Shown piece after piece: positions 5,847 to 25,411 of a stretch of 50,545 nucleotides of DNA. The notes under the pieces were generated by a model, which was not told where the DNA came from, made no database searches, and saw nothing but the letters and a program-made list of their open reading frames with translations. Positions within the stretch are counted from its first letter, which is position 1. Every line of letters starts with the position of its first letter. Both the position numbers and the translations under genes were made by a program. The DNA comes from Candidatus Sumerlaeota bacterium (GTDB lineage Bacteria; Sumerlaeota; Sumerlaeia; SLMS01): positions 1 to 50,545 of the forward strand of contig SLMS01000111.1 of the NCBI GenBank assembly GCA_007133495.1, read 5' to 3'.

Positions 5847-7634
5847 TTGCGCACTCTAAGCTCCCTCCTCCCATACGTCCGGCGCCACGCCTGGGCCATC
5901 GTCTTCGGGATACTTTTTGTCTTCCTGGCGAACTCCCTTGCCCTGACCGTTCCCATCATCATCGGCCAGACGGTCAACCTGATCGAAGAAGGCCGCATCC
6001 ACCCGGACAACCTGTTTCACCTCGCCTTCCTGGCTGTGTGCGTCGCCGGGGTGGCCGCCTGCTTCCGCTTCCTCATGCGCCGGGTGATCATCGACATCTC
6101 CCGCGAGGTCGAGTACGAGTTCCGCAACGACTTCTTCCGCAAGCTCCAGTCCCTCGACCCAAGCTTCTTCGATGCGCGCAACACCGGCGACCTGATGAGC
6201 CGCGCCACAAACGACACCGATGCGCTCCGGATGCTCATGGGCCCCGGGGTGATGTACACGGCGAACACGATCTTCAGCCTGCCCATCGCCCTCACCGCGA
6301 TGCTCTGGCTGGACTGGCGGCTGACCCTGGTCTGCATGGCGCCGATGCTGGTACTGACACCGTTGGTGCGGTACTTCGGCACCCGCACCCACCGCATGTC
6401 GCGACTGCAGCAGGACTCTTTCGGCGAGTTGACCACCACCGTGCAGGAAAACCTCGCCGGCATCCGCGTCGTGAAGGCCTACCGGCAGGAGGACTTCGAG
6501 CTCCGCAAATTTCTCGAGCGCAACGACGACTACATCGACAAGTCGCTCGAGCTGGCCCGGCTCCAGGCCATGTTCTTTCCCTCCATCCGGTTGCTGGTCG
6601 GTTTCGGGTTCACGGTCCTCCTGCTGTACGGCGGTCACCGGATCATCCAGGGGCATCTGGAGGTGGGCACGCTCCTCTCCTTCCTGCTGCTTTTCGGGAT
6701 GATTGTCTGGCCGCTCATCGCCGCCGGCTGGGTGATCAACCTGATCCAGCGGGGCATTGCTTCGCTGGAGCGCATCAACGCCATCCTGGAGTCCGTTCCC
6801 AGCGTGACCGAGCCGGAGGACGGTGCCGCGGTCGTTGTCGAAGCCGGACCGCCGAGCATCGAACTGCGCTCGCTCACCTTCCAATACGAAGGCACCCTGT
6901 GGCCGCAGTTGAAGGATATAGACCTGCACGCTCCGCCGGGCAAGACCGTCGGCATCGTCGGGCCCGTCGGTGCAGGGAAATCGACGCTGGTGAATCTACT
7001 GTCGCGGTTCTACCCTGTACCGAGAGGAATGATCTTTTTCGGGGGGAAGGATATTAACGACTGGCCGCTCTCCGAACTCCGCCGGCGTATATCTTTCGTG
7101 TTCCAGGAGACCTTTCTCTTTTCCGATACCATCGGGTGGAACATACGGTTCGGATCCGCGGATAACACGCCCCAGGACCTCGTCGAGGAAGCGGCGGAGA
7201 TTGCGCAGGTCCACAGCGACATTGGCGATCTGCCGCGCAATTATTCCACCGTGCTCGGGGAGCGCGGGGTGAACCTCTCCGGCGGCCAGCGCCAACGCGT
7301 CGCCATCGCGCGGGCGCTCATGCGCCAGGCGGATATTCTCGTGCTCGACGATACGCTCTCCGCCGTGGACACGCACACCGAGGAGGCCATCCTCGGCGAG
7401 TTGCGCCGCATCATGGAGCGCAAGACCACCTTCCTCATTTCCCACCGCCTTTCCACAGTCGCGACGGCGGACGAGATTCTCGTCCTCGATGAAGGCCGCA
7501 TCATCCAGCGCGGCACGCACAACGAACTTAATGCCCAGCCCGGGTGGTACTCGGAAATGTATAGTCGGCAGCTCTCCGAGCGCGCGATCGAGGATTACGA
7601 CGAGGAAGGCTTCGCGGAGGACCCGGCAACATGA
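5847..7634 (+). CDS. ABC exporter fused permease/ATPase, subunit 1 of a heterodimer (YheI/MdlA-like)
   Basis: 6-TM domain, Walker A GPVGAGKST, LSGGQRQR, degenerate Walker B ILVLDD, SHRL. Start set at TTG 5847 after AAGGA. Confidence 0.92.
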   Translation: MRTLSSLLPYVRRHAWAIVFGILFVFLANSLALTVPIIIGQTVNLIEEGRIHPDNLFHLAFLAVCVAGVAACFRFLMRRVIIDISREVEYEFRNDFFRKLQSLDPSFFDARNTGDLMSRATNDTDALRMLMGPGVMYTANTIFSLPIALTAMLWLDWRLTLVCMAPMLVLTPLVRYFGTRTHRMSRLQQDSFGELTTTVQENLAGIRVVKAYRQEDFELRKFLERNDDYIDKSLELARLQAMFFPSIRLLVGFGFTVLLLYGGHRIIQGHLEVGTLLSFLLLFGMIVWPLIAAGWVINLIQRGIASLERINAILESVPSVTEPEDGAAVVVEAGPPSIELRSLTFQYEGTLWPQLKDIDLHAPPGKTVGIVGPVGAGKSTLVNLLSRFYPVPRGMIFFGGKDINDWPLSELRRRISFVFQETFLFSDTIGWNIRFGSADNTPQDLVEEAAEIAQVHSDIGDLPRNYSTVLGERGVNLSGGQRQRVAIARALMRQADILVLDDTLSAVDTHTEEAILGELRRIMERKTTFLISHRLSTVATADEILVLDEGRIIQRGTHNELNAQPGWYSEMYSRQLSERAIEDYDEEGFAEDPAT

Positions 7635-10553: not shown

Positions 10554-12209
10554 TTACCTGATCGGTCCTCGCGTGATGGTCCGCCTGCCGGGGATGGTTC
10601 CGGGGCGGTCGGTCAGTGCGTTCAGCAGGTTCTGCGCGTCGCGCAGGCGGGAGTTCAGGTCCATGCCGGACATCGGCCCGAGCGAGGGGTCCAGCCGCAG
10701 AGCGGTCTGATAGTGGTCCACCGCGCGGCGGGCGAGGGTGATGGCCTGCTGGCGTTCGCTGATGCCGAAGGTGGCGCGCCGGCGTTCGTCATGCAGCCGG
10801 TCGAGGTGGCGGAGCGCCTCGGTGTAGTACTGCATGCCGCGCTCGGCGATCTCGCGGGCCCGCTCGCGGGTCTCGGCCGCCTGCCGACGTGCCTCGATGT
10901 CGGCCCGTTGGTAGAGTTCTTCCGCCTCTTCGAGCAGTTCGTCAAAGCGGGTGTGCTCCTCGCGGAACCTCTGGGCGATGTCGCGCGCGATCAGGAACTC
11001 ACCACGGCGATAGGCTCGATCGGCACGGGCGAGCTCGGACTCGGCCTCCTCGCGCAACACCGAGAGGGCGATCTCGTTTTCCGAGTCGTAGCGCAGCACG
11101 AGTTCGATCTCCCGGTTGGCCATTCGGGTGAGTCCCTCCTCGCGAAGCTGTTGAGCCAGAAGTGCGCGCCCGTCCCAGTCCTCCTCGCCCAGTTGAGCCT
11201 TGTCCCGCTCGTACCGCAGAGCCACCAGCGGCCCGGTATCTTCGCTGGGGAAGAGCTGGAGCAGTTCCTCGTAGCGCTCGATGGCGCGCTCCCACTGGCG
11301 CCGCTCGGTCAGTTGGCCGATCAACTCGCGGTAGGAGGTGCGGAGCATCCGGTCGTAGCCCCGTCCGGCAAAGCGTGGAACTCCGTGGACGCGGCGCAGC
11401 GGCTCGATCGCCTCCTCGTAGCGCTCGGCCTCGTAGAGCAGTTCGCCGGCGACGCGGTTGTTCTCCAGGTTCGCCGGGTCTTCCTCCAGCTTGGTCATGT
11501 AGGCTTCGAGGACCTCGGGCTTCTTCTCGGGATCGTTGCGCCAGATGCGCAGGAGCCTGTCGCGGGCCTCCTGGTTGTCCGGGTCCATTTCGAGGACGCG
11601 GAGGTATTTCTCCTCGGCCGTGCGGTAGTCGAGCCGGTCATAACGCGAGAAGCCCCAGGCAAGGTACAGGTCGCGCATTAGCCGCTGTGCGGAGGCCTGT
11701 TGGTCCTCGGTGGCCCCGGACGCCAGGATCCGGTCGAGCACCTCTTCGGCGCGGTCGAAGCGCTGCTCCTCGATCATTTCGGGAATCTGTTCGAGTTCCC
11801 GGCTGATCTGTTCCCTCATCTGGCGGGAGCGCTCCTCTTGCTGCTGTTCGATGATGCTCCGCGCCTCTTCGAGTCCCTCGCGGGCCTCCTCGTGGTCCGG
11901 GTCGGCCTCGACGGCCTGCTGGAACATTCGGAGCGCGGAGGTGTAGTTGCGCGCGCGCAGGTGCTGCCGGCCGATGCGGGTCCAGTCAGTCGCGTCGTCC
12001 TCCTCGATGATCTCGGCCACGCGGGCCATGGGGAGTTCGATGCGCCCGCTGCTGCTGATGAACGCGATGCGCTCATCGCTGCCGACAACGGGCTCGACGC
12101 GGCCCTCAAGGCGCGTTCCGTCCCGCAGGACAACGATATCGGGCAGCGCGAGTGCCGGAACGAGCAGCAGCACCACCACGCTCAGGGAAAGATGAATTGG
12201 ACTTCTCAT
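10554..12209 (-). CDS. Secreted tetratricopeptide-repeat protein
   Basis: Sec signal (..LLLVPALA), N-terminal 'DIVVLRDGTRLEGRV' beta module and several TPR-like repeats (ALRMFQQAVEADPDHEEA, YLRVLEMDPDNQEA, YEELLQLFP, YQTALRLDP). Confidence 0.85.
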   Translation of the reverse strand: MRSPIHLSLSVVVLLLVPALALPDIVVLRDGTRLEGRVEPVVGSDERIAFISSSGRIELPMARVAEIIEEDDATDWTRIGRQHLRARNYTSALRMFQQAVEADPDHEEAREGLEEARSIIEQQQEERSRQMREQISRELEQIPEMIEEQRFDRAEEVLDRILASGATEDQQASAQRLMRDLYLAWGFSRYDRLDYRTAEEKYLRVLEMDPDNQEARDRLLRIWRNDPEKKPEVLEAYMTKLEEDPANLENNRVAGELLYEAERYEEAIEPLRRVHGVPRFAGRGYDRMLRTSYRELIGQLTERRQWERAIERYEELLQLFPSEDTGPLVALRYERDKAQLGEEDWDGRALLAQQLREEGLTRMANREIELVLRYDSENEIALSVLREEAESELARADRAYRRGEFLIARDIAQRFREEHTRFDELLEEAEELYQRADIEARRQAAETRERAREIAERGMQYYTEALRHLDRLHDERRRATFGISERQQAITLARRAVDHYQTALRLDPSLGPMSGMDLNSRLRDAQNLLNALTDRPGTIPGRRTITRGPIR

Positions 12210-12484: not shown

Positions 12485-15400
12485 ATGACAAAGGCCATTG
12501 TCCACTTGGCCGCAGGGGCTGCGCTCCTTGCGGCAGCCACCGTGCCTGCTGCGCCGCTGGTCATCAACGAGTTCGTCGCCTCCAACCACGGCGGACACAC
12601 GGACTTCCAGGGGGATACCCCCGACTGGATCGAGCTGCACAACGCCGGCACGGAACCGGTGGCTCTGGAAGGCTGGGGGCTGTCCGACGACGCGGACAAC
12701 CCGCGCCGGTGGGTCTTCGAGCAGGGAATCGTCGAGCCCGGCGGCTTCCTTGTCGTCTTCGCCTCGGGGAAAGACCGGCAGGACGCCTTCGAACCGCATA
12801 CGAACTTCGCCATCAGTTCGGCCGGCGAGCCGCTTCTACTTACCGGCCCGGACGGGCATCTGGTGGACTTCGTGCCGGAGACGCCCCTGCCGGTAAACGT
12901 CTCCTTCGGCCGCAAACCCGACGCCGGCCAGGATTGGCTCTACTTCAAGGAGCCCACCCCCGGCGCGCCGAATACCTCCGCCGGTCACGTGGAAGTCCTC
13001 GAACCTCCCTCCTTCTCCCACGAGGGTGGCTTCCGTACCGAACCGTTCGAGCTGACCCTGGAGACGGACCACCCAGGCGCACAGATCATCTATACGCTGG
13101 ACGGGTCTGAGCCCACCCCGGACAAGATCGGCGGTTTCACCTATCACTACAAGCAACAGTACGCCGAGTTTCCGGGCGATCCGCTGGGGGAGTTGCTCGA
13201 ACGCACCATCGAGTCGCACTACTACGACGGAAAAAGCATTCCCATCGCCGATCGGAGCGATGAGCCGGACCGGATCGCCGGGGTCAACACGACGCTGCAC
13301 CGCGACACGTCAAGTTTCGAACCCCTCGGCCCGTCCTTCAAGGGTACGGTTGTCCGGGCACGCACGGTGCGCGAGGACGCGATACCGAGCAGGACTGTCA
13401 CGCATACCTATTTTGTGACACCTGATGGGCGGGACCGCTACGGCCTGCCCGTGGTGTCGCTCGCCATCCAGGAGGACCATCTTTTCGATTACGAGAACGG
13501 TATCTACGTGGCAGGAGTGGATTACGACGACTGGCGTATCGAGAACCCCGATGGCCAGTTCACTCCCGGGCCGGGTCCTGACAAGACGGCCACGGAAGAA
13601 CCGTCCCAGGGCTTCATCGGAAATTTCACACGCCGCGGCAGGGAGTGGGAGTACCCCGTTCATCTCGAATATTACGAGGCCGGTGCCCGGGCTGATCTGC
13701 GGCAGAATCTCGGCTTCCGTATTCACGGGGGCGGCACCCGTGCGGTCGCGATGAAGAGCTTCCGGCTTTACGCACGCAACGCCTACGACGATACAAATGT
13801 GCTCGACTACCCCTTCTTCGACTACCCCGGTTTCGTGGACAGCGCCGAGGGCAGGCCGATCAAGGAATTCCGCCGCATGATCCTCCGCAATTCAGGTCAG
13901 GACTATTTCCGCACCATGCTCGGCGATGGGTTCCTGCAGCGGATTCTCCGGCCTCTCGGGCTCGATTACCAGGAGTACTCCCCCGCCGTGGTCTTCGTAA
14001 ACGGCGAATTCTTCGGCATCATGAATTTCCGCGAGCGTATAGACCAGCACTACCTTGCAGCGCGCCACCTTGTTGACCCGGACGATGTGGCCATCCTCAC
14101 CCGAAACGCCGAAATCAGACACGGAGACGAGCGTCACCGGGAGGATTTTCTCGCCCTCCGCGAGTTCATCACCAACGAAGACATCGCCGGCCCTGACGCC
14201 TACGCCCATGTTGAAAGTGAGATGGATACCGGAAATTTCATCCGGTACAAGGCGGCGCAGATATACACCAGAAATCTGGACTGGCCGGGAAGAAACATAG
14301 ACTACTGGAGGAAGGCCACTCCCGACCTCAGCGAAGGCGCTCCCCCCGCCCATGACGGCCGCTGGCGGTGGATCGTGTTCGACCTTGATATCGCCATGGT
14401 GCCCGTCTTCGATCAGGACGCCTCCCACGACACACTCACCGCCGCAACGCTCGACCACAACGAACCGTGGCCAAACCCCGATTGGTCGAAGGTGAAGCTC
14501 CGCCGCCTGCTGGAGAACGAAACCTTCAGGCACGCGTTTATTAATGAGCTGGCAGACCAAAAGAACTCAATCTTCCGCCCGGCCCATTACGAACCCATCC
14601 TCGACCGCATGCACGAGCGTATAGACCCACACCTCGACGAACACCGCACCCGCTGGAGCGACAGCGCCAGGTTCTCCATTGATGACTTCAAGGAATTCGG
14701 CGAAGAGCGCCCCGCCTGGATTCGCCAGCATACGATCAACTATTTCGACCTTCCGGGCACCGCCACCATCACGCTCGACACGCCGAATCCCCGCAGGGGC
14801 ACCATCCGCATCAACAGCCTCAACATCGCCCCCCACCTCGAAGGACTGGAGGTCCCGCTCAAGCCGTTCCCCTGGACCGGCACCTACTTCCAGTCGGTCC
14901 CTGTCGAAATCGAGGCGATCCCGAAAGCCGGCTTCCGGTTCTCGCACTGGGATGGCGATCTGGGGGGTGAAGGACCCCTGGCAGTTCTCGCCCCTCTGGA
15001 GGAACTCCGCGCCACGGCCATCTTCGTGCCCGACGAGGGGTATCCCTGGGACACGGTTCTCCCCCAGCCGCACCGCCTCAGCGAGGTACACTATCGTTTC
15101 GATGCCTGGCCCGCCGGCGCCCCAGCCGGCACCTTCCCGCCAAACATCGTCTTCCGCCAGACGCCCGTGGGAGACCCGCTGCTCGCGGACGAACCGGATG
15201 GGCTTTGGGGGCATCCCTACGCTTTGGACAACCGCAGCCGGGTCATCGGGTTGAATGGCCTCGGCGCCGGTTTCATCAACACCTCCAACCCGCAGGAGGA
15301 CGGAGGGGGGTACGTGACGGGCGCGGAGCTGGCCCTGGACACGCGGGATTTGCTTTCCGCGCAGGTCGCCTTCACCGCCCGGACCGTCCTGCCGAACGAG

Positions 15401-15697
15401 CGAACCTACGCCCTGCGTCTCCAGTACCGGATCGGCCCGGAGGGGAGGTTCCACGACCTCCTCGACAGTCACGACAAGCCTGTCGAGTACATCCGCCACC
15501 CAACCCCGGGGCATGAGGAGCGCATCGGCCCCGTTGCGTTGCCGCGCGAGACCATCGGCCAGGAGTATGTTTCACTTCGATGGAAGTATTACTTCATCGA
15601 AACCGGCGCATCCGGCCCGCGGGCAATGCTGGCCATGGACGATGTCAGCGTGGAAGGAGAAGTCGTGGCCGATATGCCCTTCTGGGTGTTCAGATAG
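12485..15697 (+). CDS. Secreted CotH-family kinase, paralogue 1 (signal peptide, lamin tail domain, Fn3-associated domain, CotH, beta-rich C-terminal domains)
   Basis: Lamin-tail motif LVINEFVASN..DWIELHN; IYTLDGSEP; CotH motifs RIHGG..R..KSFRLY, LRNSGQD, NLDWPGRN, WRWIVFDLD; strong SD GAGGAAGG; ends MPFWVFR. Confidence 0.9.
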   Translation: MTKAIVHLAAGAALLAAATVPAAPLVINEFVASNHGGHTDFQGDTPDWIELHNAGTEPVALEGWGLSDDADNPRRWVFEQGIVEPGGFLVVFASGKDRQDAFEPHTNFAISSAGEPLLLTGPDGHLVDFVPETPLPVNVSFGRKPDAGQDWLYFKEPTPGAPNTSAGHVEVLEPPSFSHEGGFRTEPFELTLETDHPGAQIIYTLDGSEPTPDKIGGFTYHYKQQYAEFPGDPLGELLERTIESHYYDGKSIPIADRSDEPDRIAGVNTTLHRDTSSFEPLGPSFKGTVVRARTVREDAIPSRTVTHTYFVTPDGRDRYGLPVVSLAIQEDHLFDYENGIYVAGVDYDDWRIENPDGQFTPGPGPDKTATEEPSQGFIGNFTRRGREWEYPVHLEYYEAGARADLRQNLGFRIHGGGTRAVAMKSFRLYARNAYDDTNVLDYPFFDYPGFVDSAEGRPIKEFRRMILRNSGQDYFRTMLGDGFLQRILRPLGLDYQEYSPAVVFVNGEFFGIMNFRERIDQHYLAARHLVDPDDVAILTRNAEIRHGDERHREDFLALREFITNEDIAGPDAYAHVESEMDTGNFIRYKAAQIYTRNLDWPGRNIDYWRKATPDLSEGAPPAHDGRWRWIVFDLDIAMVPVFDQDASHDTLTAATLDHNEPWPNPDWSKVKLRRLLENETFRHAFINELADQKNSIFRPAHYEPILDRMHERIDPHLDEHRTRWSDSARFSIDDFKEFGEERPAWIRQHTINYFDLPGTATITLDTPNPRRGTIRINSLNIAPHLEGLEVPLKPFPWTGTYFQSVPVEIEAIPKAGFRFSHWDGDLGGEGPLAVLAPLEELRATAIFVPDEGYPWDTVLPQPHRLSEVHYRFDAWPAGAPAGTFPPNIVFRQTPVGDPLLADEPDGLWGHPYALDNRSRVIGLNGLGAGFINTSNPQEDGGGYVTGAELALDTRDLLSAQVAFTARTVLPNERTYALRLQYRIGPEGRFHDLLDSHDKPVEYIRHPTPGHEERIGPVALPRETIGQEYVSLRWKYYFIETGASGPRAMLAMDDVSVEGEVVADMPFWVFR

Positions 15698-15793
15698 CCA
15701 AACCCCGAGTTGCGACTTGCCTTCGCACCCGGCCGGCGGTTGACTCCCACCACCATTCCGAACCCGTTGGAGTACAGTCTTCCCCGTACCCAA

Positions 15794-18700
15794 ATGATCT
15801 TCAAAACATCCGACTCCCGCCACCATCCCGGGACTGCATGGCTGCTGCGATGCGCCGGGGCCCTTGCCTTTTCCTGGGCGATGACACAGGCACCGGCCGC
15901 ACCACTTGTTATTAACGAGTTCGTCGCCTCCAACCATGGCGGGCACATGGACGACCTTGGCGAAACCCCGGACTGGATCGAACTGTACAATCCCGGCACG
16001 GAGCCGGTGGACCTGGAAGGCTGGGGGCTTTCCGACGACGAGGACAACCCGCGCCGGTGGGTCTTCGAGCAGGGAACGGTTGAGCCGGGTGAGTTCTTCG
16101 TGGTCTTCGCCTCCGGGGAAGACCGCCAGGACGAAATCTCGCCGCATACGAACTTCGCCATCAGCTCCGCGGGCGAGCCCCTCATTCTGACCGGCCCGGA
16201 CGGGAACGTGGTGGACTTTGTGCCCGAAATCCCCGTCCCCACCAACATCTCCCGGGGGCGCAAGCCTGACGGCGGGGAGGACTGGTTCTACTTCGGCGAG
16301 CCCACCCCCGGAGCGCCGAACACAACAACGGCCTATTCGGAAATACTCGACCCGCCCACCTTCTCGCACGAGGGTGGCTTCTATACGGAGCCGTTCGGGC
16401 TGACCATCGAGGCGCCGGACCCGGACGCGGCGATCGTCTATACGCTTGACGGGTCGATCCCGGCAGTGGAAAACATCGGCGGCACTTCCTACTACTACAA
16501 GCCTGAATATCAGGAGCGGCCTCCCGACCCGCCGGGGGAGCTTTCCACACGCACAATTGAGTCCATGGAGCACGCGGGCGAGGGCATCCCAATCGTGGAC
16601 CGCTCCCCCGAACCCGACAGCCTCTCCGGCATCAACACCACCTGGCGGCGCGATGCCAGCCACTACGCACCCATCGAGGCGTCTTTCAAGGGCACTCCCG
16701 TCCGGGCCATTGCGGTGCGTGAGGGGGCACTGCCCAGCGAGGTCACCACACATACCTATTTTGTAACCGAACAGGGCCGCAGCCGCTATTCCCTTCCTGT
16801 AATTGCCCTGTCCATACAGGAGAACCACCTTTTCGATTACGAAGACGGTATTTATGTGCCGGGAATCCTTTTCGACCAATGGCGCGATTCAAATCCCGAC
16901 AGGTTCCCCACACACTCCACCTCCAGCAATTACAGGCGCCGTGGCAGGCAGTGGGAATTCCCCGCCTGGTTCGAATACTTTGAGGATGAGCCCCACGCCG
17001 CGGTCCGCCAGGGGTTGGGTGCACGCATCCACGGCGGCGGATCACGATACTTCGCACTGAAGAGCTTTCGTTTATATGCACGAAACGCCTACGACGACAA
17101 GAATACCCTCGACTATCCGCTCATTCCCGGGCTGACGGACCAGGCCGAGGGGCGGCCGATCACTGAGTTCCGGCGCTTTCTGCTCCGCAACTCCGGCAAC
17201 GATTATCCCCAGACAATGCTGCGCGACGCGTTTCTGCAAGAAATCGTCAAGCCGCTCGGGTTCGATCAACAGGGCTACAATCCCACCATTGTTTTCCTGA
17301 ACGGGGAGTTCTGGGGGATACTTAACATCCGCGAACGCATCGACCGCCATTACCTTGCGCGCCAGCACCTCATCGACCCCGAGGAGGTGGGCCTGCTTTC
17401 CAACAATGCGCAAGTCCAGGACGGTTCCTTTCAGAACCGGTGGGACTTTCTCGATCTGCGCGCTTACATTGCCCAGAATGACATGGACGACCCGGAGCAT
17501 TTCGACCACGTCGCCGAACAAATGGACATCGAAAACTTCATCCAGTACAACGCCCTCCAGATCATCATAAACAATATAGACTGGCCGGGCAACAACATTG
17601 ACTTCTGGCGCAAGCAGACTCCGGACCGGAGCAAGGGCGCTCCCGAAAGCCACGATGGCAGGTGGCGCTGGATCGTGTACGATCTCGACCTCGCTTTTCA
17701 CCAGACCGGAAGCCAGGGCCAGTATGATGTGGACTACGATATGTTGAGTCACGCCACCAAGCGCGGTGGCGTCGAATGGCCCAACCCCGACTGGTCCACC
17801 ACCATGCTGCGTAACCTGCTCGAAAGCGAGGAGTTCCGGAACGGTTTCATCAACGCCCTGGCCGACCAGATGAACTCCATCTTCCGGCCCGAAAACCTCG
17901 AACCTGTTCTGGACAGAATGCACGCACGCATCGCTCCGCATCTCGATGAACACCGCGCCCGGTGGCGCAACAGCGCTCAATGGACCACCCAGCACATGAA
18001 GGACTGGGGCCATGAGCGCCCGGGATATGTACGCCAGCACGTTCTCGATTTTTTCGATTTGCCGGGAACTGCTGAAGTCACACTCGACACCTCCACGCCC
18101 CGCCGCGGAGCCATCCGTATCAATAATCTGACTATTGAACCGCACCTCGAAGGACTTGCCGACCCCGGTCAGTCTTTTCCATGGACGGGAGTCTATTTTC
18201 AGACGGTTCCGATAGGCATTGAGGCTGTCCCCAAAGCGGGCTTTGCGTTCTCCCAGTGGGAGGGGGACCTTGCCGGCAGTCCGCGCGAAGTCACTGTCGA
18301 AACACCGGAGGAGTTATCCGCCACGGCCGTCTTCGTCCCCGATCAGGACTACCCCTGGAAGGGCATCCTCCCCGAGGCGCACGCGCTTGCAGCGGGTCCG
18401 TATATCTCCGGCCCTTGGCCGCGCAACGCTGACCCGGGAACCTACCCGCCGAACATGGTTTTCCGCCAGATTCCGGTGGGCGACCCGCTCCTTGCGGACG
18501 AACCGGATGAACTCTGGACTCACCCCTACGATCTCGAAAGCCGCAGCCGCGTTACAGGTCTATACGAACTTGGCTTTGCCTTTATCAACACGTCAAACCC
18601 CCAGGATGACGGCGGTGGGTACGTAACCGGAGCAGAATTGGCGATCGACACGCAAGGGGCCACGTCAGCCTTTGTCCGCTTCACTGCTGGAACTCTGCGC

Positions 18701-19003
18701 CCGAACTCTCGTCAGTACGCCCTGCGGCTGCAGTACCGCCTCGGTCCCGAAGGCCAGTTCCGAGACGTGCTGGATGCCGGCGGCGATCCCATCGAGTACG
18801 TCCGCAACGAAGAGCAAGGGCACGAACAGGAATTCGGCCCCATCGCTCTTCCTCAAGACGCCATGGACCAGCCCTACGTGACTCTGCGCTGGAAGTACTA
18901 CTATATCGAGACCGGCATTACCGGCCCACGGGCGAAGCTCTCCCTGCGCGACATTGAGGCTGAGGCAATCCCGGAGAACGCGCCAACCTGGGTCTGGCGC
19001 TGA
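15794..19003 (+). CDS. Secreted CotH-family kinase, paralogue 2
   Basis: Colinear with paralogue 1; NIDWPGNN and WRWIVYDLD; ends APTWVWR. Start moved to ATG 15794, which gives a plausible signal peptide ending APA|APLVINE. Confidence 0.9.
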   Translation: MIFKTSDSRHHPGTAWLLRCAGALAFSWAMTQAPAAPLVINEFVASNHGGHMDDLGETPDWIELYNPGTEPVDLEGWGLSDDEDNPRRWVFEQGTVEPGEFFVVFASGEDRQDEISPHTNFAISSAGEPLILTGPDGNVVDFVPEIPVPTNISRGRKPDGGEDWFYFGEPTPGAPNTTTAYSEILDPPTFSHEGGFYTEPFGLTIEAPDPDAAIVYTLDGSIPAVENIGGTSYYYKPEYQERPPDPPGELSTRTIESMEHAGEGIPIVDRSPEPDSLSGINTTWRRDASHYAPIEASFKGTPVRAIAVREGALPSEVTTHTYFVTEQGRSRYSLPVIALSIQENHLFDYEDGIYVPGILFDQWRDSNPDRFPTHSTSSNYRRRGRQWEFPAWFEYFEDEPHAAVRQGLGARIHGGGSRYFALKSFRLYARNAYDDKNTLDYPLIPGLTDQAEGRPITEFRRFLLRNSGNDYPQTMLRDAFLQEIVKPLGFDQQGYNPTIVFLNGEFWGILNIRERIDRHYLARQHLIDPEEVGLLSNNAQVQDGSFQNRWDFLDLRAYIAQNDMDDPEHFDHVAEQMDIENFIQYNALQIIINNIDWPGNNIDFWRKQTPDRSKGAPESHDGRWRWIVYDLDLAFHQTGSQGQYDVDYDMLSHATKRGGVEWPNPDWSTTMLRNLLESEEFRNGFINALADQMNSIFRPENLEPVLDRMHARIAPHLDEHRARWRNSAQWTTQHMKDWGHERPGYVRQHVLDFFDLPGTAEVTLDTSTPRRGAIRINNLTIEPHLEGLADPGQSFPWTGVYFQTVPIGIEAVPKAGFAFSQWEGDLAGSPREVTVETPEELSATAVFVPDQDYPWKGILPEAHALAAGPYISGPWPRNADPGTYPPNMVFRQIPVGDPLLADEPDELWTHPYDLESRSRVTGLYELGFAFINTSNPQDDGGGYVTGAELAIDTQGATSAFVRFTAGTLRPNSRQYALRLQYRLGPEGQFRDVLDAGGDPIEYVRNEEQGHEQEFGPIALPQDAMDQPYVTLRWKYYYIETGITGPRAKLSLRDIEAEAIPENAPTWVWR

Positions 19004-19060
19004 ATCCTGGCTCGTTGAGCCAACTCCTTTATCCATGAAGGGCGGATTTCAAGAGACAGC

Positions 19061-22000
19061 ATGAAGACACTTCACCATACGAATGAGATAGCAAAGGCGC
19101 TCCGCGCCCTTCTCGTTCTCTTTTTTCTTTCGGCAATGGGCCCAATCCCCGGCGGAACACTTGTCATTAACGAGTTTGTCGCGTCCAACCATGGAGGGCT
19201 GGCCGACGAAACGGGGGAGACGCCCGACTGGGTTGAGCTGCACAACCCCGGCGCCGAGCCAGTCGCCCTCGAAGGCTGGGGGCTTTCCGACACGGAGGAA
19301 GACCCCCGCCTCTGGGTTTTCGAGAGTGGCTCGGTGGAACCCGGTGGGTTCTTCGTTGTGTTCGCCTCCGGCGAGGACCGGCAAGAAGTCTCCCCACCGC
19401 ACACAAACTTTGCCATCAGTTCCTCCGGCGAGCCGCTCATCCTCACGGATCCACTCGGCGAGGTGGTGGACTTCGTGCCGGAGGTTCCCGTCCCCACCAA
19501 CATCTCCCGCGGCCGCAAGCCGGACGGCGCGGAGGATTGGTTCTATTTTGACCAACCCACGCCCGGCGCGCCCAACACAACACCAGCCGCCACGGAAATA
19601 CTGGACCCTCCAACCTTCTCCCATGATGGCGGATTCTATACGGATCCCTTCGAACTCACCATTGAGACAGACGAGCCGGATGCGGAGATAGTCTATACCC
19701 TCGACGGATCCCTTCCGGACGCCGGCAACCTCGGCGGAACCACCTATCAATACAAGCAGCAGTACCGCGAGGACCGCGACGACCCGGATGGTGAACTGCT
19801 GACTGCCACCTATCAGTCCCACGCCTGGGACGGCGAGCCGCTCCCCATAGTTGACCGGTCGGAGGAACCTGACAGAACCACCGGCATCAATACGACTTGG
19901 CGGCAGGATTACAGCATCATCGCGCCGGACGGGCCGGTGTTCAAGGGCACCGTCGTCCGGGCGCGTGCCGTGAAGGAGGGTGCCATCCCGAGCGGCGTCG
20001 TCACGCACACCTACTTCGTTACGCCTGAAGGCCGGGAGCGTTACTCTCTTCCCGTCATCACTCTCGCAATTCAGGAAGACGAACTCTTCGACTACTACGA
20101 TGGCATCTACGTGGCCGGAATGGACTACGATTCCTGGCGCCCGCACAACCTCCACCTTGCTCCGAGCCACTCCTCCCCTGCCAACTACCACCGGCGCGGT
20201 TTGGAGACTGAGCGTCCTGTATTCTTTGAGTACTATCGTGAGAACGAGGAACACCCCGCTTTGCGGCAGAACCTGGGAACCCGGCTCCACGGTGGGTCCT
20301 CGCGCGTTCAACCGCTCAAGAGCTTCCGGCTCTATGCCCGCCGGGCATATGACGAAACTAACGTGGTCGATTTTCCCCTTCTCCCCGATCTGAGAGACTA
20401 CATCGAGCACCGCCCCATCACGGAGTTTCGCCGCTTCATCCTCCGCAATTCGGGGGCCGACTACTGGCGCACCATGATTCGCGATGCGTTCCAGCACCTT
20501 CTCATCCGCGATATCGGATTCGACTATCAGGAATACCAGCCCTCGATCATTTTCTTGAACGGGGAATTCTGGGGCATCCTCAATATCCGCGAGAGAATCG
20601 ACCGCCATTACCTGGCCCGCCGGCACCGGATCGATCCGGACGACATTGTTCTCCTGACCAGCAACGCGGTGCTCAAGGACGGCGAACCACATCACCGCCA
20701 GGAATATCTAGATCTCCGGACCTTCATAACTCAAAACGACATGAGAGACCCGGAAAACTTCGCTCACGCAGCCGATCAAATGGACATGGAGAACTTCATA
20801 CGGTACAACGCAGCAAAAATATACATGAAGAACACCGACTGGCCCAGCAATAATATAGACTTTTGGCGCAAGGCCACCCCCGACCGCAGCGAAGGCGCGC
20901 CTCCCACGCACGACGGCAGGTGGCGCTGGATCATGTTCGACATGGACGCGGGGTTCGGCGACGCGATGGACTACGATCACACCCACGATACCCTGAGCTT
21001 CGCCACCGAGCCCGGCGGGGTTTCCTGGCCCAACCCCGATTGGTCCACAACCATGCTCCGCAACCTGCTCCAGAACGAAGGCTTCCGGAATGACTTCGTG
21101 AACGAACTGGCCGACCGCATGAACACCATCTACCGTCGGGAGCATTTCGAGCCCCTCCTGGACGAAACCTACGGCCGCATCTTCCCACACATGAACGAGC
21201 ACCGCGAGCGCTGGCGCACCAGCGCCGGCCGTAGCCCGGAGTTCATGCGCCACTTCGGCCGTGAACGCCCCGAATGGATGAAGCTCCACACGGTGAACTA
21301 CTTCGCCCTGCCCGGCACCGCCGAAATTACACTCGATACGCCCGCCCCCCGGCGCGGCAGCATCCGGATCAGCAACCTTCTCATCGAACCTCAGCTCGAA
21401 GGGCTACCCGACCCCAACCGCCCCTTCCCGTGGACGGGGACCTACTTCCAAGGCATTCCGGTCGAGATCGAAGCCATCCCCAAGGCTGGGTACCAATTCT
21501 CCCACTGGGAGGGATATCTCACGGGGGAGGATGCCAACTTGACGCTCGAGCCCCCCGAGGAGCTATCCGCCACGGCCATTTTCCTCCCCGATCCGGACTA
21601 CCCCTGGGAGGAGCTACTCCCCCAGCCGCACCCGCTGCGCGAGGAGCCCTACGAGTTCCGCTACTGGCCGCGCACTGCCGAGCCGGGCACCCACCCCCCG
21701 GCGATGGTCTTCCGCCAGACCGCCCAGGCGGACCCTCTTCTCCCCGATCCGGGCGAAAACATCTGGAGCCATCCATACGACCTCGAAAGCCGCAGCCGCG
21801 TTACCGGTCTCCACGGTCTCGGGGCCGCCTTTATCAACACTTCCAATCCGCAGGAGGGCGGCGGAGGGTACGTCACCGGGGCGGAACTGGTCCTGGATAC
21901 CCGGGGTGTCACCGCGGCGGAAGTGTCCTTCACGGCAGGGACCATCCTGCCCAATGAGCGCACCTACGCCCTGCGGCTCCAACACCGTGTCGGCCCGGAG

Positions 22001-22255
22001 GGGAGGTTCCGCGACCTCCTCGACACCGCCGGGGACCCCATCGAATACGTCCGCAACCCCGAGGAGGGCCACGAGCAGGAATTCGGGCCGATCGCGCTCC
22101 CGGAGGAGCTTCTCGGCCAGCGATGGGTCTCACTAAAATGGAAGTATCACTTCATTAAAACGGGCGTAAGTGGGCCAAGAGCAATGCTCTCCCTGCGCGC
22201 TATTGTTGTGGAGGGCGAGCTGGCACCCGAGACCCCGGCTTGGGTGTTTCGATGA
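19061..22255 (+). CDS. Secreted CotH-family kinase, paralogue 3
   Basis: Colinear with paralogues 1 and 2; NTDWPSNN and WRWIMFDMD; ends TPAWVFR. Confidence 0.9.
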   Translation: MKTLHHTNEIAKALRALLVLFFLSAMGPIPGGTLVINEFVASNHGGLADETGETPDWVELHNPGAEPVALEGWGLSDTEEDPRLWVFESGSVEPGGFFVVFASGEDRQEVSPPHTNFAISSSGEPLILTDPLGEVVDFVPEVPVPTNISRGRKPDGAEDWFYFDQPTPGAPNTTPAATEILDPPTFSHDGGFYTDPFELTIETDEPDAEIVYTLDGSLPDAGNLGGTTYQYKQQYREDRDDPDGELLTATYQSHAWDGEPLPIVDRSEEPDRTTGINTTWRQDYSIIAPDGPVFKGTVVRARAVKEGAIPSGVVTHTYFVTPEGRERYSLPVITLAIQEDELFDYYDGIYVAGMDYDSWRPHNLHLAPSHSSPANYHRRGLETERPVFFEYYRENEEHPALRQNLGTRLHGGSSRVQPLKSFRLYARRAYDETNVVDFPLLPDLRDYIEHRPITEFRRFILRNSGADYWRTMIRDAFQHLLIRDIGFDYQEYQPSIIFLNGEFWGILNIRERIDRHYLARRHRIDPDDIVLLTSNAVLKDGEPHHRQEYLDLRTFITQNDMRDPENFAHAADQMDMENFIRYNAAKIYMKNTDWPSNNIDFWRKATPDRSEGAPPTHDGRWRWIMFDMDAGFGDAMDYDHTHDTLSFATEPGGVSWPNPDWSTTMLRNLLQNEGFRNDFVNELADRMNTIYRREHFEPLLDETYGRIFPHMNEHRERWRTSAGRSPEFMRHFGRERPEWMKLHTVNYFALPGTAEITLDTPAPRRGSIRISNLLIEPQLEGLPDPNRPFPWTGTYFQGIPVEIEAIPKAGYQFSHWEGYLTGEDANLTLEPPEELSATAIFLPDPDYPWEELLPQPHPLREEPYEFRYWPRTAEPGTHPPAMVFRQTAQADPLLPDPGENIWSHPYDLESRSRVTGLHGLGAAFINTSNPQEGGGGYVTGAELVLDTRGVTAAEVSFTAGTILPNERTYALRLQHRVGPEGRFRDLLDTAGDPIEYVRNPEEGHEQEFGPIALPEELLGQRWVSLKWKYHFIKTGVSGPRAMLSLRAIVVEGELAPETPAWVFR

Positions 22256-22433: not shown

Positions 22434-23084
22434 ATGTCTCGCAGCACTAACTACATACCATCAACGGCCCCGGCGGGCTCCTCCGCCGTGGTGCCGGCCT
22501 CCAGGAGGGAAGCCGGTACCGAGGGGGACCCCCCAACTACCGGGCCGGAACGGCGTGCGGAACACGGCTGCCAGCTAAGGGTTCTGCACTCCATCCGGCG
22601 AATCATCCGCTCAGTCGATCTCTACTCCAAGCAGCTCTCCGGCTGCCACGGCATCACGGTGCCGCAGTTGGTGGCGCTTTTGGCCGTGTGCGAGCACGGT
22701 TCGCTGACCGTAACCGGGCTTGGCAAGCTGGTCCACGTCAGCCCGAGCACCCTGATCGGTGTGGTGGACAGGCTGGAGGAGAAGGGGCTGGTGGTCCGCG
22801 AGCGCAGCGGGAGGGACCGCCGGCTCGTGCACCTCTACCCGACCGAGGCGGGGATGGAACTGGCCCGGAGTTCGCCCTCTCCGCTGCAGCAGGGTCTTGT
22901 GGAGGCTCTCGACGCCCTGCCCGAGGATGAGCAGGCCATGCTGGCCTCCGCTCTGGAACGCATCGTGGACCTCATGGAAACCGGAAGGCTTGGGGGCGTT
23001 CCCGTGCCCGAAGCGGCAGATGTCGGCGTCGCCGAAAGCGCATTCTGCCCGGACGAAACCACTCGACTGGAGCACGAACCTTGA
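22434..23084 (+). CDS. ectR: MarR-family regulator of the ectoine cluster
   Basis: SIRRIIRSVDLYSKQL..GITVPQL and VSPSTLIGVVDRLEEKGLV.RERS..DRR...PSPLQ; lies directly upstream of, and overlaps, ectA. Confidence 0.85.
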   Translation: MSRSTNYIPSTAPAGSSAVVPASRREAGTEGDPPTTGPERRAEHGCQLRVLHSIRRIIRSVDLYSKQLSGCHGITVPQLVALLAVCEHGSLTVTGLGKLVHVSPSTLIGVVDRLEEKGLVVRERSGRDRRLVHLYPTEAGMELARSSPSPLQQGLVEALDALPEDEQAMLASALERIVDLMETGRLGGVPVPEAADVGVAESAFCPDETTRLEHEP

Positions 23085-23632
23085 CCAGCACGACGCAACC
23101 GGACAAGGAGTCCGGCACGGACATCGCATTCCGCCTTCCCAGGAGCGAGGACGGGGCCCGCATGCTGGAGCTGGTCAAGGCCAGCCCGCCGCTGGAGCCC
23201 AACACCTGCTACGCGTACCTTCTGTTGTGTCATCACTTTCGCGAGACGTGCGTGGTGGCAGAGCAGGAGGGCGAGTTGCGGGGGTTCGTGGTGGGCTACC
23301 GCCCGCCAAAGGAGCCGGACACCGTTTTCGTCTGGCAGATCGCCGTCAGCTCGAAAGCCCGGGGACAGGGACTTGGCAAACGCCTCCTCGAGCAACTCCT
23401 CGCAGCACAGCCCGAGGGCAGCGTTCGCTACCTGACCTCGACGGTGACACCAGACAACGAACCTTCCGCGCGCCTGTTCCGCTCCTACGCGGAAAAACTC
23501 GGCGTTCCGTGCGAGGAATCAAAACTCTTCGGTGCGGAAGCCTTCGGAAAAGACCAACACCACGAGGAGGAACACCTCTTCCGAATCGGGCCGCTCCCCG
23601 GCAGCGGCCGCACACCTCACACACCCCTCTAA
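23081..23632 (+). CDS. ectA: Diaminobutyrate acetyltransferase
   Basis: GNAT fold with PLEPNTCYAYLLLCHHF.ETCVVA, FVWQIAV..ARGQGLG and TVTPDN..S..LF; precedes ectB. Confidence 0.93.
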   Translation: MTSTTQPDKESGTDIAFRLPRSEDGARMLELVKASPPLEPNTCYAYLLLCHHFRETCVVAEQEGELRGFVVGYRPPKEPDTVFVWQIAVSSKARGQGLGKRLLEQLLAAQPEGSVRYLTSTVTPDNEPSARLFRSYAEKLGVPCEESKLFGAEAFGKDQHHEEEHLFRIGPLPGSGRTPHTPL

Positions 23633-23652
23633 GGACCAGGGAGTACACAACC

Positions 23653-24951
23653 ATGGAAATCTTCAACAGACTCGAATCCGAAGTTCGCGGCTACATCCGC
23701 TCCTTCCCCACCGTCTTCACCGAAGCGAAGGGCGCCCTCCTGACCAATGAAGAAGGCAACGAGTACGTTGACTTCTTCGCCGGTGCGGGTTCGCTCAACT
23801 ACGGACACAACAACCCCGTGCTCAAGGAGCACCTCATCGCCTACATGGAGAGCGACGGGGTCACTCACGGGCTCGATATGGCCACGGAGGCCAAGCAGGC
23901 TTTCCTCCAGACCTTCGAGGACAAAATCCTGCGCCCGCGCAACATGCGCTACAAGATCCAGTTCACCGGCCCCACCGGCACCAACGCCGTCGAGGCGGCC
24001 CTCAAGCTCGCCCGCATGGTGAAGAAGCGCGAAAACGTCATCTCCTTCACCCACGGGTTTCATGGCCTTTCGATGGGGTCGCTCGGGGCCACCAGCAACC
24101 GCAAGTTCCGCGAATCCGCCGGGATGACGCCCCCGGGCGTGACCTTCCTCCCCTTCGACGGATACCTGGGTGAGGACATCGACACGACCGAGTACCTGGA
24201 GAAAGTCCTGACGGACCCCGGCTCGGGCGTGGACCTGCCCGCCGCGGTCATCGTCGAAACCGTCCAGGGCGAAGGCGGCGTCAACGTCGCCAGCTTCGAA
24301 TGGCTGCGTTCGCTGGAGCAGGTCTGCCGCAACCACGGCATCCTGCTGATCGTGGACGACATTCAGGTGGGCTGCGGGCGCACCGGGCCGTTCTTCAGCT
24401 TCGAGAAGGCCGGCATCTCGCCCGACATCATCACGCTCTCCAAGTCGCTCAGTGGCTACGGCCTCCCGATGTCCATCGTCCTGATGAAGCCGGAACTCGA
24501 CATCTGGAAGCCGGGCGCCCACACGGGCACCTTCCGCGGCAACAACCTGGCCTTCGTGACCGCGAAGGCCGCCATCGACGAGTACTGGAGCGACGACCGC
24601 TTCACCAAGGAAGTCGAGGCAAAGGCCAAGCTCATGCGCGATTGGCTCGAACACATCGCCGAGAGCTACCCCGAAGGCGGCTTCTCCGTGCGCGGCCGCG
24701 GCATGGTCCAGGCCATCTGCACCGAGGAAGACCACAGCCTGGCGGACAAGATCACCGCCGCAGCCTTCAAGCGCGGCCTGGTCATCGAGACCTCCGGATC
24801 GAACAGCGAGGCGATTAAATTGCTGCCTTCGCTGACGATCGAGGAAGATCTGCTTGAAAAGGGCCTCCAGCTTTTGGAGGAAAGCGTTGTTGAGATTCTG
24901 GGCGTCAAGCCGGCGCCCTACAGCCGAATGACAGCAGGAGCAAAAAAGTAA
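23653..24951 (+). CDS. ectB: Diaminobutyrate--2-oxoglutarate transaminase
   Basis: MEIFNRLESEVRGYIRSFP, DFFAGAGSLNYGHNNP, GPTGTNAVEAALK, DDIQVGCGRTG, SKSLSG. True start at ATG 23653 after GGGAG, not 22759. Confidence 0.96.
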   Translation: MEIFNRLESEVRGYIRSFPTVFTEAKGALLTNEEGNEYVDFFAGAGSLNYGHNNPVLKEHLIAYMESDGVTHGLDMATEAKQAFLQTFEDKILRPRNMRYKIQFTGPTGTNAVEAALKLARMVKKRENVISFTHGFHGLSMGSLGATSNRKFRESAGMTPPGVTFLPFDGYLGEDIDTTEYLEKVLTDPGSGVDLPAAVIVETVQGEGGVNVASFEWLRSLEQVCRNHGILLIVDDIQVGCGRTGPFFSFEKAGISPDIITLSKSLSGYGLPMSIVLMKPELDIWKPGAHTGTFRGNNLAFVTAKAAIDEYWSDDRFTKEVEAKAKLMRDWLEHIAESYPEGGFSVRGRGMVQAICTEEDHSLADKITAAAFKRGLVIETSGSNSEAIKLLPSLTIEEDLLEKGLQLLEESVVEILGVKPAPYSRMTAGAKK

Positions 24952-24952
24952 T

Positions 24953-25411
24953 ATGATCGTACGCACCGTAGAAGAAACCTTCGGCACCGACGCCGAGGTC
25001 AAAACCCCCAACTGGGTCAGCAGAAGGCTGCTGCTCAAACGCGACGGGATGGGGTACTCCGTCCACGAGACCACGATCTACGCGGGCACGGAAACCTACA
25101 TCTGGTACAAGAACCACCTTGAGGCAGTCTTCTGCGTCGCGGGCGAAGGCGAAGTGGAACTGATCCCCAGCGGCGAGAAGTTCCGCATCGTGCCGGGCAC
25201 GATCTACGCCCTCGACAAGCACGACAAACATTACCTGCGGGCCTTCAAGGACCTGCGGCTCGTGTGTGTGTTCGGTCCGGCGCTCACCGGGCGGGAGGTT
25301 CACGACGAGGAAGGTGTTTATCCGCTGATCGAGGAGGAAGAGGAGACCGTCATCGAAGAGGAAGTGACGCTGGAGAAAGACAAGCAGGGAGGTAACTCCG
25401 CCAGCGCCTGA
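24953..25411 (+). CDS. ectC: Ectoine synthase
   Basis: MIVR..W.SRRLLLK.DGMGYS.HET.I..WYKNHLEAV.C..G.G..YALDKHDKH.LRA..CVF.P.LTGREVHD. Confidence 0.96.
   Translation: MIVRTVEETFGTDAEVKTPNWVSRRLLLKRDGMGYSVHETTIYAGTETYIWYKNHLEAVFCVAGEGEVELIPSGEKFRIVPGTIYALDKHDKHYLRAFKDLRLVCVFGPALTGREVHDEEGVYPLIEEEEETVIEEEVTLEKDKQGGNSASA

Follow-up and report, generated by a model that had tools for sequence, protein, structure and literature searches.

The stretch of DNA analysed here (the window, 50,545 nt) is contig SLMS01000111.1 of a Candidatus Sumerlaeota bacterium, and coordinates are positions in that stretch unless another contig is named. It carries three tandem genes for large CotH kinase family proteins, read as open reading frames (ORFs) on the + strand, and each protein ends in a short tail containing tryptophan (Trp), which is the subject of this report. 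The features concerned are as follows.

12485..15697, + strand: CotH paralogue 1, an ORF of 1070 aa with Pfam matches
15674..15694, + strand: tail MPFWVFR of paralogue 1, with the core WVFR at 15683-15694 and the stop codon TAG at 15695-15697
15710..19003, + strand: CotH paralogue 2, an ORF from TTG at 15710, with the probable start at ATG 15794
18980..19000, + strand: tail APTWVWR of paralogue 2, with the core WVWR at 18989-19000 and stop codon TGA
19061..22255, + strand: CotH paralogue 3, an ORF of 1064 aa with Pfam matches, the C-terminal 228 aa of which were modelled
21569..22216, + strand: unnamed C-terminal beta-sandwich domain of paralogue 3 (AlphaFold2), with equivalents in paralogues 1 and 2
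22232..22252, + strand: tail TPAWVFR of paralogue 3, with the core WVFR at 22241-22252 and stop codon TGA

All three proteins share the LTD, Fn3_assoc/CHB_HEX_C and CotH architecture (Pfam), and score 148–168 bits against the CotH kinase family (PF08757), for which the cut-off is 23.8. Paralogue 1 is laid out as a signal-peptide-like N-terminus (MTKAIVHLAAGAALLAAATVPAAP), LTD, Fn3_assoc/CHB_HEX_C, CotH kinase domain, an unnamed jelly-roll C-terminal domain, a linker and the tail. The start of paralogue 2 is uncertain because a public gene call (P0004) has 1018 aa; judged from the signal-peptide-like segment, ATG 15794 is the most likely. Pairwise identity among the three is 61–62%, with a mean column identity of 76%, and past the last strand the alignment shows a gapped, divergent linker followed by invariant P, W, V and R. 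The C-terminal ends are ...GEVVADMPFWVFR (paralogue 1), ...AEAIPENAPTWVWR (paralogue 2) and ...GELAPETPAWVFR (paralogue 3). A first-pass annotation, made by a model from the sequence alone, had described three CotH paralogues with divergent linkers and these three endings, and the ORFs and alignment bear this out. Its statement that no type IX secretion system (T9SS) C-terminal domain (CTD), dockerin or PEP-CTERM signal is present also holds, as none of the three CotH proteins has a Pfam match to any of them, and paralogue 3, the only one searched with NCBIfam, has no family match there.

Six-frame translation of the genome to which the window belongs (3.73 Mb in 344 contigs, 88.7% complete) yields 18,260 ORFs of 100 aa or more. 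Four of these end in the narrow motif W-[VILM]-[FWY]-R, namely the three paralogues and an unrelated Kelch-repeat protein ending PSAWIFR. Counts for broader motifs were made on 2964 non-overlapping ORFs produced by a home-made ORF caller. In this set, W-x-[LIVMFW]-[YFWH] lies at the exact C-terminus of 40 ORFs, compared with 1.19 expected from its interior frequency (484 in 1,208,962 positions), a 34-fold excess. When 1 to 11 extra residues are allowed after the motif, the counts are 10, 1, 2, 0, 0, 1, 1, 0, 1, 0 and 0. Trp occurs 91 times at position -4, and 30–66 times at each other of the last 30 positions; part of this raw count comes from a pilin-like family with an N-terminal membrane helix (contigs C78, C119 and C327), the members of which end in LWNS[YF] or LWSTE and do not carry the tag, because their Trp at -4 comes through homology. 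The last residue after W-x-[LIVMFW] is Y (21), F (8), H (8), R (7), Q (3) or W (3), where the background for each is at most 1.1. A reduced-alphabet scan of all C-termini ranked the pattern aromatic-hydrophobic-hydrophobic-aromatic second, with 17 observed and 0.68 expected. The motif P-x-W-V-[FW]-R proposed in the first-pass annotation is present on the three CotH proteins but is not the defining core, which is W-x-hydrophobic-[Y/F/H/W/R] at the very end; the Pro and Arg are one variant only, and an orthologue from the same genus ends TWVFH.

The logo of 46 carriers reads E-E-P-P-T-x-V-[DE]-x-W-x-[LVIF]-[YHFR]; the overall consensus, which also admits W at the last position ([YHFWR]), ends at the stop codon. 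The 12-residue stretch preceding the Trp is enriched in E, P, V, T and D, and K/R are depleted there to 0.2 times background. Both the logo and the signal-peptide count given below exclude ORFs shorter than 250 aa and four motif hits, three of which (C62, C226 and C196) were dropped as Arg-rich, apparently spurious ORFs, and the fourth (C307) because on inspection by eye it resembled the terminal part of a cytoplasmic aminoacyl-tRNA synthetase. The stop codons that follow the tags are TGA (38), TAA (12) and TAG (7).

With their tails removed, 60 candidate carriers of at least 250 aa fall into 33 single-linkage blastp clusters, so the tail is not confined to the CotH paralogues; the first-pass annotation had named such confinement as a finding that would count against its reading. 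Thirty-one carriers were compared with Pfam, and their domains include S8 subtilases with PA, M14, M10, PQQ glucose/sorbosone dehydrogenase (GSDH), GH57, GHL10, NAGPA phosphodiester glycosidases, Amidase_3, Kelch propellers, TSP3 repeats (in more than one protein) and, in one protein, a dockerin; several have a C-terminal Golvesin_C domain, and six have no Pfam match at E<=0.001. One tagged protein has an internal dockerin well ahead of its tag. A homologue search with the tail region of a NAGPA/Golvesin_C carrier returned two matches. Among ORFs of at least 250 aa, signal-peptide-like N-termini are found on 36 of 55 carriers and on 408 of the 2043 others (odds ratio 7.6, Fisher p 8e-13), which is the enrichment among non-homologous signal-peptide proteins that had been suggested as a check. 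None of ten ABC (periplasmic) solute-binding proteins has the tag. By comparison of these endings, the CotH tails are the Arg-ending form of a genome-wide tag common to about 50 unrelated exported proteins.

What follows the last domain in the closest CotH homologues was the other comparison suggested at first pass. Residues 845–1064 of paralogue 3 gave 37 matches among 5.8 billion proteins. Directly after the conserved last strand (...GPRA-LRLDDI-V), the tag is found in eight of the 37 homologues, three of which are the window's own, and PF18962 (T9SS CTD) occupies the same slot in five (precomputed Pfam). The slot holds a type I dockerin (PF00404) in one homologue, P0009, and the other occupants among the 37 are an approximately 80-residue domain ending F-[YF]-R-[LI], an NLLRYALGL module and other extensions. 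Homologues among the 37 that bear a CTD show no Trp tail after the last strand, so the tail does not persist beside a T9SS CTD. A profile of the 13-sequence alignment described below matched 1287 representatives at E<=1e-3 among 1.84 billion, and the best 150 of these include 7 with the tag, 44 with a T9SS-CTD-like end (by a motif rule) and 14 with an FYRL-type end. A home-built profile of 36 such CTDs matched 53 of 244 stored proteins, which served as the positive control, and had no match among the genome's 18,260 ORFs.

The tails of nearer CotH homologues vary at their last residue. In genomes from the same genus (G001), family (G008) and order (G016), they end GWMLY, TWTFR, TWVFH, TWFLY, HWLVR, FWVLW, GWYLY, GWVVY and FWLIF, and on this account Arg, His, Tyr, Trp and Phe are interchangeable at the last position, even between close orthologues (TWVFH and AWVFR). 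In an alignment of 13 C-terminal regions, 32–69% identical to that of paralogue 3, every sequence keeps the Trp, and the linkers differ from one another both in length and in sequence. Contig C88 of the window's genome encodes a fourth CotH paralogue, of 1380 aa, which has the same C-terminal domain and ends ...PEEPSDLWLIH. In frame past its stop codon, at about 6700-6836 of that contig on the - strand, is a remnant second copy of the domain end and tag (...GPRAKLRLDAVSVKGDGVTRWILY, then stop), which looks like a duplicated 3' end of the gene.

The modules that share the slot in other lineages may be of interest in their own right. The F-[YF]-R-[LI]-x(2-6)-ending module of about 80 residues is present in P0011, P0013-P0015, P0019, P0020, P0022-P0024 and P0029, and the NLLRYALGL module follows the same CotH C-terminal domain in P0016, P0027, P0031 and P0034; both are unnamed, and both may be sorting modules. 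A second shared C-terminal module in the Sumerlaeota genome is carried by seven proteins (contigs C65, C89, C206 and C290; four genes), and is built from a Cys-flanked segment, about 20 residues long, that is duplicated (...DF-DF-FLLENWGE...GF-DF-ALLENWGEGC). It occurs 49 times over expectation in the reduced-alphabet scan, is dockerin-like by eye only, and received no Pfam name at E<=1e-5 when the Kelch protein of C65 was scanned.

AlphaFold2 was run on the last 228 residues of paralogue 3 with the 13-sequence alignment (mean pLDDT 64.9; 70–94 over residues 110–220). The model is a beta-sandwich with its last strand at 206–218, followed by coil from 219 to 228, with pLDDT below 50 for 224–228. 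In this prediction the tail is not the final strand of the preceding domain, the other possibility that the first-pass annotation had set against its own reading. The domain itself (21569-22216) has no Pfam model, and a protein-atlas search with the CotH C-terminal domain returned only unnamed clusters; it belongs to a large family, often with two to five copies per protein. The best Foldseek matches, to CBM22 and CBM6, are weak (E about 1e-3, TM 0.3–0.44), and at most hint at a CBM-like domain.

A separate view of the tail as an addition comes from the M14 carboxypeptidases, the catalytic domain of which ends ...DYFELE, the tag being a 10–14-residue add-on beyond it. Among 62 M14 homologues, 12 have a linker and strict tag, two have the tag with one extra residue, and five have looser forms; the others stop at the domain end or bear unrelated short tails. 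On this comparison, the tag is gained and lost as a unit. In one orthologue (G014:C30, locus L166; protein P0070), a tag-like ...RADAWLV is followed by 24 more residues where a stop codon would be expected, as if a lost stop or a frameshift had buried the tag. Three signal-peptide-bearing M14 carboxypeptidases of the genome (contigs C162 and C109) are themselves tagged. As M14-type enzymes remove C-terminal residues, one may speculate that these could trim tags or one-residue extensions.

Within the class, the tag is found in at least four families: f1 (G001, G002, G007 and G008), f3 (G014, G016 and G020), f5 (G025) and f7 (G036 and G041). M14 paralogues in the class-level families f5 and f7 end PDWIFY and EDWTIY, and two M14 homologues from the databases, named 'Candidatus Sumerlaeia bacterium' and 'Candidatus Sumerlaeota bacterium', have tails equal to those of ORFs of G008 (same family) and G014 (same order), which makes Sumerlaeota the most likely lineage of the genome. 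In the complete 3.29-Mb genome G036 (f7), the first 400 kb hold 328 ORFs, of which two end in strict tags and one in a tag plus an extra residue. By way of control, 905 kb of sequence surrounding CotH homologues from other phyla (Bacteroidota, Verrucomicrobiota, Planctomycetota and others) was examined, and none of its 671 ORFs has the tag; these were loci chosen through distant CotH relatives with at most 34% identity over the full match and up to 50% over short N-terminal stretches, none of which reaches the C-terminal domain.

The three CotH tails thus belong to a tag that is fixed to the exact C-terminus, is carried by many unrelated exported enzymes, and sits in the slot of known sorting modules. 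We favour its being a post-Sec sorting or anchoring tag that would be read at the free C-terminus by a hypothetical reader, and put the probability of this putative function at roughly 0.55. The motif tolerates little change in its distance from the stop codon, which points to a free C-terminal peptide as the thing recognised, and we infer that the free carboxylate is part of the recognised feature; it is this dependence, together with the set of cargo proteins, the lack of the tag on periplasmic binding proteins and its position in a slot that T9SS CTDs and dockerins also occupy, that leads to export or anchoring after Sec. The tag consists of an acidic linker of about 6–12 residues rich in Pro, Thr and Val, then W-x-[L/V/I/F]-[Y/H/F/W/R] and the stop codon. 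Tagged proteins would cross the inner membrane via Sec, as their signal-peptide-like N-termini suggest; a putative envelope component would then read the tag as a free C-terminal peptide, and would move the protein across the outer membrane or hold it at the cell surface, a role like that of T9SS C-terminal domains, dockerins and PEP-CTERM-type signals in other lineages. The first-pass annotation had suggested that the Trp-centred heptapeptide may be a lineage-specific secretion or surface-anchoring signal. As far as computation reaches, that interpretation is supported by the 33 unrelated clusters, the export enrichment and the shared slot.

Candidates for the machinery were sought in the same genome. 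Besides BamA, it has five matches to secretins, and a search for a TonB-dependent receptor in this 88.7% complete assembly was negative; for these two reasons an outer-membrane route for tagged enzymes that is secretin-based is conceivable, and the route might be of this kind. Within the window, a 551-aa TPR protein with a signal-peptide-like N-terminus (10554-12209, - strand) is encoded divergently from CotH paralogue 1. Since binding of C-terminal peptides is a property of certain TPR domains, this protein may be named as a speculative candidate for the reader. A reader of the GspC-PDZ kind was considered and rejected, as no T2SSC match was obtained and the PDZ proteins found are three HtrA, Ctp, RseP and the PDZ-bearing ORF of C73. 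One of the HtrA-type proteases, on contig C223 (1-1630, + strand, cut at the contig start), has four tandem PDZ domains, which is unusual for the family. SprA_N gave no match in the genome and was likewise silent in all 14 control genomes, and a search of the genome with PF18962/TIGR04183 also gave no match, its controls being likewise silent.

Several observations weigh against a sorting or anchoring tag. The neighbourhoods of the five secretins (50 ORFs, Pfam) show nothing tied to the tag, the T2SSC search of the incomplete genome found no GspC-type protein, and the PDZ proteins are of housekeeping types (HtrA, Ctp of family S41 and RseP, with the C73 ORF appearing radical-SAM-like by eye). 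The ten ORFs with one residue past the motif are awkward for a strict carboxylate reading. The Arg-ending form by itself is weakly supported: it is seen seven times where 1.1 would be expected, and the paralogues account for three of these. The excess of signal peptides among carriers depends on a crude home-made rule (20% background) and on home-made ORF sets, in which some carriers are cut at contig ends. The spread among relatives is uneven, since the same-family genome G005 has no tag among 155 ORFs (200 kb) and G002 has one among 137, both being low-power samples, and many M14 orthologues in the order lack the tag, those of 12 relatives among them.

The main rival, which we rate as unlikely, is that the tail is a ligand for the PDZ domains of periplasmic proteases of the HtrA type or Ctp (S41), and serves as a degron or a removable C-terminal propeptide instead of a transport address. 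A motif fixed at the exact C-terminus with an aromatic or hydrophobic last residue (40 at the end, 10 with one extra) is the form that such a ligand would have, and it resembles the Y-x-F peptides of outer-membrane proteins (OMPs) that activate DegS. The genome encodes three HtrA-like proteins, one with the four PDZ domains mentioned above, and one S41 peptidase, and the three tagged, secreted M14 carboxypeptidases could trim such ends. A degron, however, does not account for a tag that stands where homologues have T9SS CTDs or dockerins, nor for its lack on all ten periplasmic solute-binding proteins, and HtrA, Ctp and RseP are near-universal, whereas the tag is restricted by lineage (0/671 in the loci of other phyla). 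Ranked next, and somewhat less probable again, is a physical anchor or clamp that needs no reader, in which the Trp and aromatic end would insert in the outer leaflet or bind polysaccharide or the S-layer directly. The aromatic-rich end seen in the logo and the predominance of polysaccharide- and cell-wall-active enzymes among the carriers fit this, as does the outcome of the secretin-neighbourhood, PDZ and GspC searches, in which dedicated machinery was not found. Four residues behind an acidic, K/R-poor linker would nevertheless anchor a protein only weakly in a membrane, stacking of aromatic residues on sugars or lipids does not need a strict distance from the stop codon, and His, Arg and Gln are tolerated at the last position.

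Two further explanations have very little in their favour. The first-pass annotation had allowed that the heptapeptide might simply be inherited from the common ancestor of the three copies and have no role of its own. In tandem duplicates of this similarity, runs of conserved residues are indeed unremarkable, given the mean column identity. The same end on 33 unrelated clusters at 34 times expectation, the Trp that stays invariant in 13 homologues down to 32% identity where the linker does not, and the M14 orthologues that gain or lose the tag as a unit contradict shared ancestry alone, and make it highly improbable. Less probable still is a longer, hidden signal, in which the stop codon is read through or recoded and a PEP-CTERM-like membrane helix lies beyond it, as P-E-P-like strings in several linkers could suggest. 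We rejected it on the ground that the downstream frames have no helix: the 50 in-frame codons past the stop encode neither a hydrophobic helix nor a basic cluster, all three stop codons are used after tags, and the genome has no coherent family of tails with a transmembrane helix and basic residues.

Two known C-terminal elements were also compared and set aside. The OMP beta-signal of BAM substrates does not suit carriers that are soluble multidomain enzymes, with an acidic Pro-rich linker before the tag and a tail modelled as coil by AlphaFold2; the BamA fragment encoded in this genome, for its part, shows the usual alternating end. The WxL domain of Firmicutes is a C-terminal, cell-wall-binding domain of about 150–200 residues with two WxL motifs. 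It was rejected since it had no Pfam match on the three CotH proteins and 31 other carriers, and the tag has a single W-x-L-like motif, at the very end.

Directly 3' of the CotH cluster (22434-25408) are genes for a MarR-type regulator, ectA (GNAT), ectB (class III aminotransferase) and ectC (ectoine synthase), an arrangement that suggests a salt-adapted organism.

In the literature searched, with papers in subscription journals outside its scope, no description of such a tail was found, and a term search of two Sumerlaeota genome papers, PMC8092238 and PMC10866078, gave no mention of C-terminal or sorting signals. The tail is likewise covered by no Pfam or NCBIfam model. We regard the tag as a candidate for a new class of envelope address. 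To our knowledge, all described prokaryotic C-terminal sorting signals are either a folded domain (T9SS CTD, dockerin) or a motif followed by a membrane helix and a basic cluster. Were a portable four-residue tag to mark the exoenzymes of an entire uncultivated lineage, it would represent a new kind of address and presuppose a reader that nobody has yet sought. It would also provide a one-line rule by which the extracellular enzymes of Sumerlaeota could be predicted from metagenome-assembled genomes, would allow synthetic tag peptides to be used as bait for the machinery, and might serve as a minimal export or display tag in engineering, and the three CotH 'giants' would be explained as ordinary cargo of the tag system.

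Among known systems, the T9SS type A CTD (PF18962 Por_Secre_tail/TIGR04183) is like the tag in being found at the extreme C-terminus of many unrelated Sec-exported enzymes and adhesins in one lineage, and in taking the same slot after the CotH C-terminal domain in homologues. It is a folded domain of about 70–100 residues, whereas the tag has four conserved residues after a short linker, and neither the three CotH proteins nor, with the home-built profile, any of the genome's ORFs matched a CTD. The tripartite signals (LPXTG/sortase, PEP-CTERM/exosortase, GlyGly-CTERM/rhombosortase and MYXO-CTERM/myxosortase), a panel of which is described in a preprint (bioRxiv 10.1101/2023.06.07.544157), resemble the tag as short, lineage-specific signatures on dozens of unrelated exported proteins per genome. 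They consist of a motif, a transmembrane helix and a basic cluster, in contrast to the tag, which has an acidic linker, ends three residues after the Trp and has nothing hydrophobic past the stop; in 24 proteins scanned, no NCBIfam model touched the tail. Dockerins are duplicated calcium-binding modules of about 60 residues with no match on the three CotH proteins. Docking to a scaffold is a possible job for the tag because P0009 carries a dockerin in the same slot.

Peptides read by PDZ domains, such as the OMP Y-x-F ends bound by DegS and the substrates of HtrA and Ctp/Prc, share with the tag a free aromatic or hydrophobic end at a fixed distance. According to PMC12369372, a PDZ domain of the type II secretion system can decide the secretion of specific cargo (VesB/EpsC, Vibrio), and the PDZ-dependent information in VesB sits in an Ig-fold, not in a terminal peptide. 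The ligands of DegS are the ends of beta-barrels, unlike the soluble enzymes that carry the tag, and for a system of the VesB/EpsC type no GspC was found in this genome. In eukaryotes, short C-terminal addresses include the peroxisomal PTS1 (-SKL) and the endoplasmic reticulum retrieval signal (-KDEL), and we know of no counterpart in the bacterial envelope. The tag is like them in being very short, read at a free C-terminus and portable between unrelated proteins, and differs in kingdom, compartment and sequence. As a tentative and rather doubtful analogy, it could be the bacterial counterpart of these tri- and tetrapeptide addresses, and would then have no precedent as an envelope sorting signal that lacks both a membrane helix and a folded domain. 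It would in that case be a four-residue label, read at the free carboxylate, that would route folded, Sec-exported enzymes via a putative outer-membrane export or surface-display route.

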